Assembly (NCBI GenBank): GCA_963768055.1
Contig: CAVYGN010000001.1
Coordinates: 1,344,001 to 1,408,000, forward strand
DNA from: an uncultured Spirochaetota bacterium
GTDB lineage: Bacteria > Spirochaetota > Brevinematia > Brevinematales > JAOACQ01
Reading direction: 5' to 3'
DNA length: 64,000 bases
A program made the position numbers and the translations under genes. Positions 50,990 through 53,860 of the stretch are shown here, in pieces. How positions within the stretch are numbered: position 1 is the first letter of the stretch; each line of letters starts with the position of its first letter. A model generated the notes under the pieces. The model was given only the letters and a program-made list of their open reading frames with translations, made no database searches and was not told where the DNA came from.

Positions 50990-52006
50990 TCACTGAACTA
51001 TCAGGCGGGCTTTTAAATTTCCGTTTTTATATAAAAGCTGAAGAATCTTTACAATATCGTTCCCGGTAAATCCGGTCTGATTTAAACTGTCAACAAGGTC
51101 CTGCACTGTAGCCGTACCTTTTAACAGTTTGACGCTTCCTTCGGTTTTCTGTTGTGAAATATTTCCGTTTTGACTGGAACCTATCTCCAGTTTCATACCT
51201 CCGTAAGAAACAGCCGAATCAGAAAGTATGACATTGCCTCCGGAGATAAGTATCCCGTTTTTAGAGTCGATCAGGACGCTTGGTTCTTCCTCGATATCTG
51301 CGCTAAGTTTGAAAATATCATCGATAAAATTGTTTACTTCAAGGTTCTGCGGTACTTTAACTTTTATCCTGTTAAAAGATATCTCCCTGACGGCATCAGG
51401 ATATTTCTGTTTGATCGCATCGACAGATTTATTAACGGCATTATAGCCGAGCGATTCCTGAACAATAAAGGTAATAACATTATTAGTATCAAGAATAATA
51501 TTATCAATTCGCTTTTGCATAATTGCGCCCAGGGGAACGTATCCCATGATACCCTTAGAGAACCTGTCGGTCATAACACTGCCTTCAGCAATAGCATAGA
51601 TATCATTATCTCCGCCCATAAGAGGCGTAATAATAAGTTCTCCTCCTTCAAGGGATTTGGCGTCGTAAATCGATGAAACTTTTACATCAATCCTCGATCC
51701 CTGTTGTGAAAAAGGAGTGATTGTCGCGCTAACAAGGACGACCGCCGAGTTTTTTGGTTTGATTTTGTCAGAATTTATTTTAAAACCAAAATTGTTGGCA
51801 ATTCTCGATATGATCTCTTTTGTCTGTGTCCCGCTGTCGCTGTCGCCGGTACCTTTTAAACCGACAACGACGCCATAGCCCAGTAAAGGGTTTTCCTGAA
51901 ATCCTTCAATTCTCAATATATTTCTCAGATTAACAGTCGATGCGCGCAAAGTACCTGCAATGCTGAACAGGGAAACAACCATTATAAAAGAATAAAATAT
52001 TTTCAC
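50990..52006 (-). CDS. flgI: Flagellar P-ring protein FlgI
   Basis: N.LLGYGVVVGLKGTGD, DVKVSSIYDAKSLEGG and GNLKARLIV. Confidence 0.85.
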   Translation of the reverse strand: MKIFYSFIMVVSLFSIAGTLRASTVNLRNILRIEGFQENPLLGYGVVVGLKGTGDSDSGTQTKEIISRIANNFGFKINSDKIKPKNSAVVLVSATITPFSQQGSRIDVKVSSIYDAKSLEGGELIITPLMGGDNDIYAIAEGSVMTDRFSKGIMGYVPLGAIMQKRIDNIILDTNNVITFIVQESLGYNAVNKSVDAIKQKYPDAVREISFNRIKVKVPQNLEVNNFIDDIFKLSADIEEEPSVLIDSKNGILISGGNVILSDSAVSYGGMKLEIGSSQNGNISQQKTEGSVKLLKGTATVQDLVDSLNQTGFTGNDIVKILQLLYKNGNLKARLIVQ

Positions 52007-52725
52007 AGCGGCTCCTTTATTTTGACCTTGAATACTCTCCCGCTCCTATTATTTTCGACAAGACATGTACTGTCCTCAAGTTTTCTGATTATTCTTACTT
52101 TCATTTTAATCGATATATTCCCTTTACTGAATACAAGGTCCGCATTCCCCATGTCTAAATTTTCTATATACTGTGAATCATTTTTTTCTGTATTATTTTC
52201 CGGCAGCTTTGCAGGTTCCGGATCGGAGGGCCTTTCCAGTCCGATATCAAAAACCTCGTTTGTTGCAAATCCGGTATCTCCTCTGAAAAACACATAATCT
52301 ATAATAAGTGTCAATATATTTGAAGATACTTCATTCGATATTTTCAGGACCTTAAATTTCTCCGGCAGGTCAAATTTCTTGAAGAATTTTACAACAAATT
52401 GCCCCTTTAAGGCACCCGAAATATATTGATTAATCTCGTCAACGGATGATAAGGTATCAAGCCTGATAACATAAGTTCCTGCGCCTATCAATACCAAATC
52501 ACCAGCCCCTCCCCTGTCCATCAGGCCATGGATCTCGGCATTCGAAAAAAAACAGTTTGTCAGCACCGATACAGAACCCTTTGCATCTGTTTCCCTTCCT
52601 ACAAGATCGTTTATAGTAATCGAATCCTTTCTTGTATAAACATAATCCTTTAAAATAATCTGGTTTATTTCTCCGGAAATGAATGAAGTAAATAAAAAAA
52701 TCGGTAAAATAAATATCTTGCGCAT
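52003..52725 (-). CDS. Secreted hypothetical protein, possibly a divergent FlgA (P-ring chaperone)
   Basis: Signal peptide; overlaps the flgI start; C-terminal VENNRSGRVF resembles the FlgA V.N..S.K pattern. Confidence 0.4.
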   Translation of the reverse strand: MRKIFILPIFLFTSFISGEINQIILKDYVYTRKDSITINDLVGRETDAKGSVSVLTNCFFSNAEIHGLMDRGGAGDLVLIGAGTYVIRLDTLSSVDEINQYISGALKGQFVVKFFKKFDLPEKFKVLKISNEVSSNILTLIIDYVFFRGDTGFATNEVFDIGLERPSDPEPAKLPENNTEKNDSQYIENLDMGNADLVFSKGNISIKMKVRIIRKLEDSTCLVENNRSGRVFKVKIKEPL

Positions 52726-52753
52726 AGATTCTCCCTAAAGTGTATTATTATAA

Positions 52754-52960
52754 GGGCGGTTCCAAAAACTAGATTTTTAAAAAATAATTGTAATAATGAA
52801 TCTAATAATTCCGCCCAATGGGCCCTGGTGCCTGGACTGGCGCCAGTCCCCAGGACAGGTGCATTTATACTTGCGTATAAACGCAAGCACTACCTTGCTG
52901 CCCCAAAGGGCCGTAGCAAAGCGAAGGTCCCCGTAAGGGGGGCAGTTATTAGAAGCGCCC
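52754..52960. mobile_element. 207-bp structured MITE-like element, ATAA target duplication
   Basis: ATAA|GGGCGGTTCCAA...TTAGAAGCGCCC|ATAA; internal hairpins; partial copy at 46.1 kb. Confidence 0.75.
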
Positions 52961-53016
52961 ATAAATAAATATCGGAATATGTTTATATATTTAAAGGAAT
53001 ATTTGCACAATTATAA

Positions 53017-53031
53017 TGCACATTATGTGCA
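53017..53031. promoter_or_regulatory. NtrC-type enhancer (UAS) palindrome
   Basis: TGCAC-ATTAT-GTGCA about 120 bp upstream of the predicted sigma54 start; extra TGCAC half-site at 53004. Confidence 0.6.
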
Positions 53032-53119
53032 TAATGAACTGTACACATTATCGAGCAAATATATTTTTAATGCTTTATTTCGTTATATTAAAAATAGTTA
53101 ATTAATTATTCTTTTATTA

Positions 53120-53135
53120 TGGCACATTAATTGCA
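53120..53135 (+). promoter_or_regulatory. sigma54 (RpoN) -24/-12 promoter
   Basis: TGGCAC-ATTAA-TTGCA, an exact match to TGGCAC-N5-TTGCW. Confidence 0.8.
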
Positions 53136-53145
53136 TAGTAATGTA

Positions 53146-53215
53146 AAAGCCCCCTTAAAATACATTTTTTTGAAACCCTCTCCAACCCCCGGAGGGGGTT
53201 TCTCTATTTAGGGGC
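53146..53215 (+). ncRNA. Candidate sigma54-dependent small RNA with C-rich loop
   Basis: No + strand ORF downstream; 12-bp stem GAAACCCTCTCC/GGAGGGGGTTTC with loop AACCCCC, followed by TCTATTT. Confidence 0.55.
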
Positions 53216-53263
53216 CGGCCAGATCTGCATATTGTCTTATATTCGGCGGGAAAAGTAGAGGGG

Positions 53264-53860
53264 TTATATCTTTAAAAAAAGATATAAATAATATGAAAAA
53301 TTCCTGCTCTCCGAGTGGCTGATCAAAAGATTGTAAGATACGCCTTTTTTCTCAATAAGCATAAAATCGCCGACCGTTTTGATCTCGAAATGATTGAGAA
53401 CCTCTGTAAAAATTTTCCCTTCAATGTCTCTTTCAATTAATTCTAGGGCTTTCCTGTTGGCAAAAATAGTTTTTTTAAAATGATTTGTTATAACCAGAGG
53501 GTGTTCCAAATCCTCGATTACTCCAAGAATTTTAAAATGCGGCATGTATTCGTCGAAAAAAAAATGGCATTGAAATTCTTCAAAAGAAATGATCCTCAAG
53601 AGGCTTCCCGCCTTATCAATTACAGGAACCTGAAGATTTTTGTTTGAATTATTCCTGAACAGAGTTTGAGATAGCTGGGAAACTTTTATCATACTTATGT
53701 TCTCATAGAGAGAAAAACTTTCCTCCATTATTCCGATTTCAATGTCCCTCTTCAGGACGACGCCGAGGTAGTCATTGTCCTCGAAAACAATGATTCCATG
53801 GGCCGCAGGAGCATGAAAAAATAATTTCATCAGGCTCTTTGCCATTTCGATTTCCATCAT
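53264..53860 (-). CDS. Hypothetical protein (CBS-like N-terminus, PAS-like C-terminus)
   Basis: YLGVVLKRDI and VPVIDKAG..LRIIS; PLVITN....IFANRKA. Confidence 0.5.
   Translation of the reverse strand: MMEIEMAKSLMKLFFHAPAAHGIIVFEDNDYLGVVLKRDIEIGIMEESFSLYENISMIKVSQLSQTLFRNNSNKNLQVPVIDKAGSLLRIISFEEFQCHFFFDEYMPHFKILGVIEDLEHPLVITNHFKKTIFANRKALELIERDIEGKIFTEVLNHFEIKTVGDFMLIEKKGVSYNLLISHSESRNFSYYLYLFLKI

Follow-up and report, generated by a model that had tools for sequence, protein, structure and literature searches.

A conserved candidate gene for a sigma-54-dependent small RNA with a C-rich core in Brevinematales spirochetes

The Qrr1-5 RNAs of Vibrio, which are under the control of LuxO and sigma-54, are short, terminated, trans-acting small RNAs (sRNAs) with upstream activator sites and a conserved unpaired seed. 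Enhancer-dependent sRNA genes are also represented by Pseudomonas NrsZ (NtrC/sigma-54) and by enterobacterial GlmY/GlmZ (GlrR/sigma-54). Both Vibrio quorum sensing and GlmY/GlmZ control follow the logic of a pathway in which an activator is dedicated to sRNA genes. Campylobacter CJnc230 (FlmR) is a sigma-54-dependent flagellar sRNA that is processed from the 3′ end of a flagellar mRNA. Staphylococcus RsaE/Bacillus RoxS, Xanthomonas sX13, and Helicobacter RepG are Hfq-independent, and their exposed C-runs pair with G-rich or Shine-Dalgarno sites; these RNAs are not known to be sigma-54-dependent. Brevinematales is a barely cultured order of spirochetes for which a literature search found no described regulatory RNA. 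The search found no work joining Brevinematales and small RNA, and a phrase search on sigma-54- or RpoN-dependent sRNAs found enterobacterial literature only. Here I describe a locus in a 64,000-nucleotide stretch (the window) of the genome of an uncultured member of this order, in which an enhancer, a sigma-54 promoter, and a short C-rich RNA are predicted to form one gene.

Elements of the locus

The locus lies in the gap between two ORFs, 52003-52725 and 53264-53860, which are both on the minus strand. From left to right, the gap contains a GC-rich stretch (52743-52972), a cluster of half-sites, an AT-rich spacer, a sigma-54 promoter, a C-rich core, and a hairpin. The promoter, an exact match to the -24/-12 word TGGCAC-N5-TTGCA (TGGCACATTAATTGCA), is located at 53120-53135 on the plus strand, just as a preliminary description of the locus had read it. 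The rpoN gene, on which that description had made the promoter depend, is present in the genome together with seven strong enhancer-binding proteins. The enhancer (UAS, 53004-53046) was recognized from its half-sites, from their dyad, and from its retention upstream of the promoter in 23/23 genomes. The half-sites are TGCAC at 53004-53008, TGCAC at 53017-53021, and GTGCA at 53027-53031, followed by a degenerate GTACA at 53041-53045, and the cluster lies about 75-115 bp upstream of the promoter in this genome. The dyad TGCACATTATGTGCA at 53017-53031 is the TGCAC-N5-GTGCA palindrome of the preliminary description, although it starts 103 bp rather than about 120 bp 5′ of the promoter. The AT-rich spacer that had been noticed between the dyad and the promoter was also seen (53048-53119), and 53047-53119 is presumably the region that would be looped.

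Downstream of the promoter, there are AAAAGCCCCCTTAAAATACAT, a T-run, and a 12-bp hairpin. The predicted RNA is about 64 nt in length (53146-53209, plus strand); its start is set by the spacing from the -12 GC and its end by the U-tail of the terminator. Thus, the start at about 53146, the 12-bp stem, and the AACCCCC loop that had been proposed were retained, while the proposed length of 65-70 nt was slightly reduced. The 5′ part carries an unpaired C-rich core, GCCCCCUUAAAAUACAU (53149-53165), which its invariance and the minimum-energy folds make a candidate seed. The terminator hairpin (53172-53202), supported by a terminator scan and by covariation, pairs the arms 53172-53183 and 53191-53202 in a 12-bp stem with one G-U pair; its loop AACCCCC (53184-53190) is a second C-run, and the tail TCTATTT occupies 53203-53209. 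An outer pairing, also suggested earlier, is present in this genome, but it is not conserved: its 3′ G-run lies beyond the U-tail and is missing in most relatives. The predicted RNA contains no ORF, and no plus-strand gene follows it, so the promoter is indeed an orphan between minus-strand neighbours.

An Rfam scan of the window gave no family at the gathering score except a tRNA, and the RNA is uncatalogued as had been supposed. In 52600-53400, Qrr was absent among 18 matches up to E = 10 and NrsZ gave no match. The best sub-threshold match in this region was the nematode SmY RNA (29.6 bits versus a cut-off of 39), which was taken as chance.

In the window alone, the promoter and dyad motifs are not beyond chance. 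With at most one mismatch, the promoter word had at least one match in 41 of 100 shuffles, and the dyad was found in 33 of 100. The exact promoter word has three copies in the 3.69-Mb genome, where about 2-3 are expected by my own base-composition estimate. The other two exact copies and about ten weaker matches lie 27-75 nt upstream of genes that have a ribosome-binding site, which indicates that the organism clearly uses such promoters. Half-site clusters are found at ten places in the genome, and only the one at 53004-53046 adjoins a sigma-54 motif. What raises the unit above chance is the co-occurrence of the promoter, the half-sites, and the C-rich core in 23/23 genomes of five families, as described below.

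Conservation and modular forms in Brevinematales

I surveyed 43 genomes of the class, of which 23 belong to five families (f1 to f5) and 20 to two others (f6 and f7); the genome of the window (G000) belongs to f1. All 23 genomes of f1 to f5 have the whole unit of promoter, half-sites, and C-rich 5′ core. TGGCAY-N5-TTGC lies 11-17 nt before the C-rich core (25 nt in two genomes), and one to five TGCAC/GTGCA half-sites per genome lie 66-149 bp 5′ of the promoter. A blastn search with 52968-53210 gave matches in 11/11 other f1 genomes, the most distant of which span only 53146-53209, exactly the predicted RNA. In an alignment of 12 f1 genomes, TGGCA-N6-TTGC, AAAGCCCCCTT(A)AAATA, and the hairpin are kept amid variable flanks, and the spacer is conserved in length and not in sequence.

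A covariance model (R1) matched 53145-53213 in this genome at 86.3 bits. The next best match, at 22 bits, lacks the promoter and the core and is an ordinary terminator. R1 gave one match per genome in f1 (12/12 with G000), f4 (4/4), f5 (4/4), and f2 (1/1). Sibling units of promoter plus hairpin had been envisaged in this genome and in its relatives; they were found in the relatives, one copy in each R1-matched genome, while no paralogue was found in G000 with R1, a promoter-plus-C5 pattern, or the words of module 1 (see below). The search for the unit in f6 and f7 was negative in all 20 genomes; this result rests on two models plus one pattern for three genomes and means 'not found', not 'absent'. 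Weak R1 matches in three f6 genomes (31-35 bits) lack the promoter and the core and are ordinary terminators. The rpoN gene is present in 43/43 genomes of the class, including f6 and f7.

A pattern scan over one genome per species (185,579 species) gave 14 matches. Twelve of them come from records of Brevinematales, Brevinematia, or Spirochaetota and have the promoter, among them the complete genome CP053071.1 of the isolate 'Brevinematales bacterium NS'; the remaining two lack the promoter and were taken as chance. In a scan of metagenomes, 13 of 15 matches have the same build. Since an isolate genome carries the gene, bench tests are feasible.

The terminator stem covaries. In an alignment of 15 sequences, 96.7% of the hairpin cells are paired and 7 of the 12 pairs are changed on both sides; the covariation score was reached by 0/500 shuffles, and slid controls of the alignment were only 39-67% paired. 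The stem of f4 has almost no letters in common with that of this genome, yet 12 bp and a loop NACCCCC are kept. In other genera, a clean U7-type tail lies directly 3′ of the hairpin. GCCCCCTT(A)AAATA is invariant in the same alignment, and GCCCCCUU(A)AAAUA is identical in 21/21 genomes that have module 2. In the minimum-energy folds of seven forms from five families, the core and the C-runs are unpaired. Judging from these alignments and folds, it is chiefly the unpaired GCCCCCUUAAA(A)UA on the 5′ side that is conserved, more than the loop, whose C-run is missing from the long forms of two families (f5 and f2). As far as sequences can tell, this conservation shows that the unit is a gene, encoding a single-copy, uncatalogued sRNA. 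I consider it highly probable that 53146-53209 is a real sigma-54-dependent sRNA gene. The unit thus provides an sRNA gene that is precisely bounded and open to testing, and for which a start, a terminator, a seed, and an enhancer are predicted.

The RNA has several modular forms. In f1 and f4, it consists of module 2 alone. In f3 (2/2 genomes), the same promoter and enhancer precede module 1 alone, a different C-rich 5′ module; this RNA was found by a promoter-plus-C-run pattern and ends in the hairpin CCUCCUC-GAAA-GAGGAGG followed by U7. In f5 and f2, modules 1 and 2 are present together in an RNA of 131-140 nt, which begins with ACACCCCCCAAUAU and continues with two hairpins, the core, and a terminator with a non-C-rich loop; the promoter is 92-97 nt upstream of the module-2 core. 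Module 1 consists of ACACCCCCCAAUA and two hairpins. A model made from it (R2) matched f3, f2, and f5 in 7/7 genomes at 71-90 bits, and it gave no match in f1, f4, or f7 and only partial matches of 23-24 bits in f6. The arms of the hairpin ACCUCCUC-GNAA-GAGGAGGU are invariant, with no covariation, in 7/7 genomes of f5, f2, and f3 (L062, L063, L130, L131). One arm of this hairpin is an anti-Shine-Dalgarno-like word and the other is a perfect Shine-Dalgarno word, and the hairpin doubles as the terminator in f3.

It might be, and I offer this tentatively, that the conserved unit is a regulatory slot, an enhancer and a sigma-54 promoter beside the flgA-like and flgI genes, retained in all five families, in which the RNA body has been exchanged or fused. 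The RNA bodies would then have nothing in common but a 5′ C5-6 run surrounded by A and U. If so, the locus would clearly exemplify, in nature, the turnover of seed modules in a bacterial riboregulator. A dedicated pathway from activator to sRNA, shared across the order, would also be indicated, in which each genome uses one enhancer type at a single promoter to tune G-rich ribosome-binding sites, possibly those of motility or envelope genes. The modular forms across the families provide a natural experiment on the evolution of sRNA seeds behind a fixed promoter.

Possible mode of action, activator, and gene neighbourhood

How may this RNA be made and act? An enhancer-binding protein at the TGCAC/GTGCA half-sites (53004-53046) would loop over the AT-rich spacer and turn on the sigma-54 RNA polymerase at TGGCAC-N5-TTGCA (53120-53135). 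Transcription would begin at about 53146 and stop at the intrinsic terminator (53172-53209). The RNA would expose the invariant unpaired 5′ stretch AAAGCCCCCUUAAAAUACAU and, in the terminator loop, another C5 run. Most likely, it would be trans-acting and Hfq-independent, its C-runs pairing with G-rich, Shine-Dalgarno-like stretches of mRNAs and blocking their translation. In this genome, with a completeness of 94.75%, Hfq was not found, and CsrA is present. I am slightly inclined to believe that the sRNA works by antisense pairing of its C-runs. The full explanation, an sRNA gene driven by sigma-54 and an enhancer, pairing in trans through its C-runs, and responding to a signal other than that of amtB, also seems to have a little better than an even chance.

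Targets were searched with RNAduplex by comparing the 5′ region of the RNA with 11,875 start-codon windows from a crude ORF catalogue of my own. The best site belongs to a 428-aa CBM_4_9 lipoprotein, with 16/17 complementary bases and -26.1 kcal/mol, and complementarity was also found at the HD-GYP gene downstream of the lipoprotein gene and at pta. In a shuffle control with a 21-nt seed (real best -24.9 kcal/mol), in which GCCCCC was fixed and the tail was shuffled, 6 of 80 seeds were equal or better; the best single-genome target prediction failed this control. The lipoprotein site is not kept: the orthologue in G004, 73% identical, lacks it, and it was not found in the orthologues and paralogues checked. 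The starts of the activator, fliA, rpoN, flgA-like, and sigma-factor genes showed no strong complementarity to the RNA; the best among the activator, sigma, and flgA-like starts is EBP-C (-16.4 kcal/mol), which is not conserved. The exact 11-mer complement of module 1 had seven matches in five genomes, five of which are the RNA gene itself (antisense strand).

As a side observation, the CBM_4_9 lipoprotein gene, a member of a 17-member family, adjoins the HD-GYP-type HD-domain gene at G000:C1 ~1022891-1025650 on the minus strand (L070 3892-6651). Both genes have ribosome-binding sites of an AU-rich-plus-G5-6 type that are complementary to the RNA core, and the start of the HD-domain gene appears to be coupled to a 5-codon upstream ORF.

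The invariant stretch of 14-19 nt exceeds the need of a simple anti-Shine-Dalgarno seed, which leaves room for a protein or another partner. Thus, the RNA might be a protein-binding decoy whose invariant, C-rich, AU-flanked sites titrate an RNA-binding protein instead of acting by antisense, in the manner of CsrB/RsmZ for CsrA and CrcZ for Hfq. A dimeric binder would be suited by the two C-runs that most forms carry (the f3 form has one), and the core is invariant even though the neighbouring protein is only 25-28% identical across the families. The target search gave no significant or conserved mRNA, and the non-covarying arms of ACCUCCUC-GNAA-GAGGAGGU in f2, f3, and f5 hint at sequence-specific recognition. 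However, a C-rich-specific RNA-binding protein is neither known nor was identified in this analysis. CsrA binds GGA motifs, which are unexposed in the RNA, and a sponge would be expected to have more than one or two sites. Moreover, where bacteria without Hfq have short terminated sRNAs with exposed C-runs, these runs typically serve as antisense seeds. I regard the decoy, the main rival reading, as unlikely, and antisense pairing of the C-runs remains the preferred reading.

The preliminary description had also supposed that the RNA is nitrogen-regulated. An NtrC-driven sRNA like Pseudomonas NrsZ would agree with the half-sites, which I take to resemble the enterobacterial NtrC consensus, and with the presence of sigma-54-driven nitrogen genes in the genome. 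These are amtB (above the NCBIfam cut-off) and the gene of an amino-acid-permease/PII fusion, the sigma-54 promoters of which have a common 17-bp dyad, TGATTAATAWTTAATCA. This dyad differs from the TGCAC cluster and is found, genome-wide, only at G000:C2:1508795 (amtB) and G000:C1:98990 (the fusion). Conversely, the TGCAC cluster is found at neither of these promoters nor at any other sigma-54 promoter of the genome. Since the two nitrogen genes use a different enhancer dyad, nitrogen control is unsupported, and the inducing signal of the RNA is, to judge from these dyads, not that of amtB. A variant of TGATTAATAWTTAATCA lies just before the start of a GAF-GAF activator gene in two genomes (G000 and G012), so this activator is likely to be the nitrogen regulator, with autoregulation. 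None of the five activators scanned reaches an NCBIfam equivalog cut-off, that of NtrC included, and the lack of an Rfam match to NrsZ points the same way. An NtrC-driven RNA is thus quite improbable. As the genome uses the TGCAC cluster at a single promoter, one activator, not that of amtB, and one enhancer type seem to have this RNA as their sole output.

Which activator could this be? Four activator orthogroups (A to D) are shared by the five RNA-bearing genomes that were compared, each from a different family of f1 to f5. The group A activator is found in all 23 carriers, f3 included, and weakly in f7. The one f6 genome examined, G016, in which the RNA was not detected, has a single activator. 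No activator gene adjoins the RNA gene in the neighbourhoods inspected.

Some further features of the sigma-54 network of this genome were observed. Sigma-54 promoters precede two sigma-70-family genes (G000:C1:778595 and G000:C2:712622), the best NCBIfam matches of which are of the RpoS/RpoD type and below the cut-offs; this arrangement recalls the RpoN-to-RpoS cascade of Borrelia. Five sigma-54 promoters have a common GATATATCA...TGAT box; they belong to two TonB-receptor-like genes, a gene of an outer-membrane-like protein, one of the two sigma genes just named, and a gene near activator 5. At G000:C2:657717-663327 (L153), fliA is followed by hpf (sigma-54 modulation/hibernation factor), hprK, ptsH, a HAMP histidine kinase, and a group-B REC-type sigma-54 activator; this PTS-linked order recalls the rpoN-operon neighbours of proteobacteria. 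At G000:C1:1003237-1008699, a frame of 1820 aa, read by eye from the translation with the activator domain alone scored, joins an N-terminal Ser/Thr-kinase-like part and long repeat/GAF-like parts to a sigma-54 activator module.

The divergent neighbour of the RNA gene is a flgA-like gene of 240 aa (52003-52725, minus strand), which lies outside the RNA. The protein has no Pfam or NCBIfam match; the gene end overlaps the start of flgI (50990-52006), and FlgI was identified by Pfam. The RNA gene is back-to-back with the flgA-like gene in 19/23 genomes, and flgI is next where seen. Homologues of the 240-aa protein are encoded divergently beside the RNA in f5 (E 1e-14), f2 (1e-13), and f3 (1e-15) at 25-28% identity, and in f3 the homologue is followed by flgI. 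In the f1 genera, ORFs of similar size occupy the same divergent position, as judged by size and position in the relatives listed. The f4 genomes have other neighbours, with no flgA-like/flgI linkage. The fixed position beside the flgA-like/flgI operon suggests, by synteny only, a motility or envelope circuit.

The GC-rich stretch 52743-52972 is a composite, structured, dispersed repeat of which dozens of full or partial copies occur in G000 and in f1 and f5 relatives. It has a MITE/REP-like look, is inserted between the flgA-like gene and the enhancer, and is unrelated to the RNA. On the minus strand, CCGATAT (52969-52975) with TAAA 14 nt upstream (~52990-52993) faces the flgA-like gene, and a TATCG[G/A/T] box just outside the enhancer is kept, by eye, in about 16 of the 19 flgA-linked genomes. 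The CCGATAT box presumably resembles the sigma-28 -10 element, and the genome does have fliA. The loose motif has 107 matches genome-wide, with no clear one in the three flagellin upstream regions; since the motif is so common, the sigma-28 reading stays a lead.

Finally, it is barely conceivable that there is no independent RNA, the hairpin being the terminator of 53264-53860, as the preliminary description had considered, or the unit being a leader or attenuator with a chance promoter match: the hairpin does lie 62 nt past the stop codon of that minus-strand gene and the promoter word is not beyond chance in the window alone, but what follows the hairpin on the minus strand is A7 and no U-run, the terminator scan reports it on the plus strand only, a clean U7 tail follows it in other genera, the promoter is retained in 23/23 genomes, and the genes downstream of the RNA differ in identity and strand between genomes while the unit is kept, which excludes both a leader or attenuator and a terminator only for the convergent gene.

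Comparison with known sRNA systems

The locus has a -24 GG/-12 GC promoter in a genome with rpoN, upstream sites in a genome with activators, and a terminated non-coding unit. With these traits, the RNA belongs to a class already known, that of sRNAs driven by sigma-54 and an enhancer and equipped with a C-rich seed; its modular history is unusual and its regulatory function presumed. It resembles Qrr1-5 in being a terminated sRNA gene with a sigma-54 promoter, upstream sites, and a conserved unpaired seed, and probably also in acting in trans. In contrast to Qrr1-5, it has no Rfam match, is single-copy, and has no adjoining activator gene; moreover, Qrr needs Hfq, which was not found in this genome. 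Like NrsZ and GlmY/GlmZ, it is very probably encoded by an enhancer-dependent sRNA gene, but it has no Rfam match, is far shorter, and lacks repeated processing modules, and its enhancer, unlike what would be expected of an NrsZ-type gene, differs from that at the nitrogen genes of the genome. With RsaE/RoxS, sX13, and RepG, it has in common C-runs in unpaired regions or in the terminator loop, which are unpaired in the folds of this RNA, although it is not homologous to them, as judged by the lack of an Rfam match. With CJnc230, it would share sigma-54 dependence, and it is likewise physically linked to flagellar genes. Unlike CJnc230, it has its own promoter and enhancer and is divergent from the flgA-like and flgI genes, a synteny that may reflect a flagellar role.
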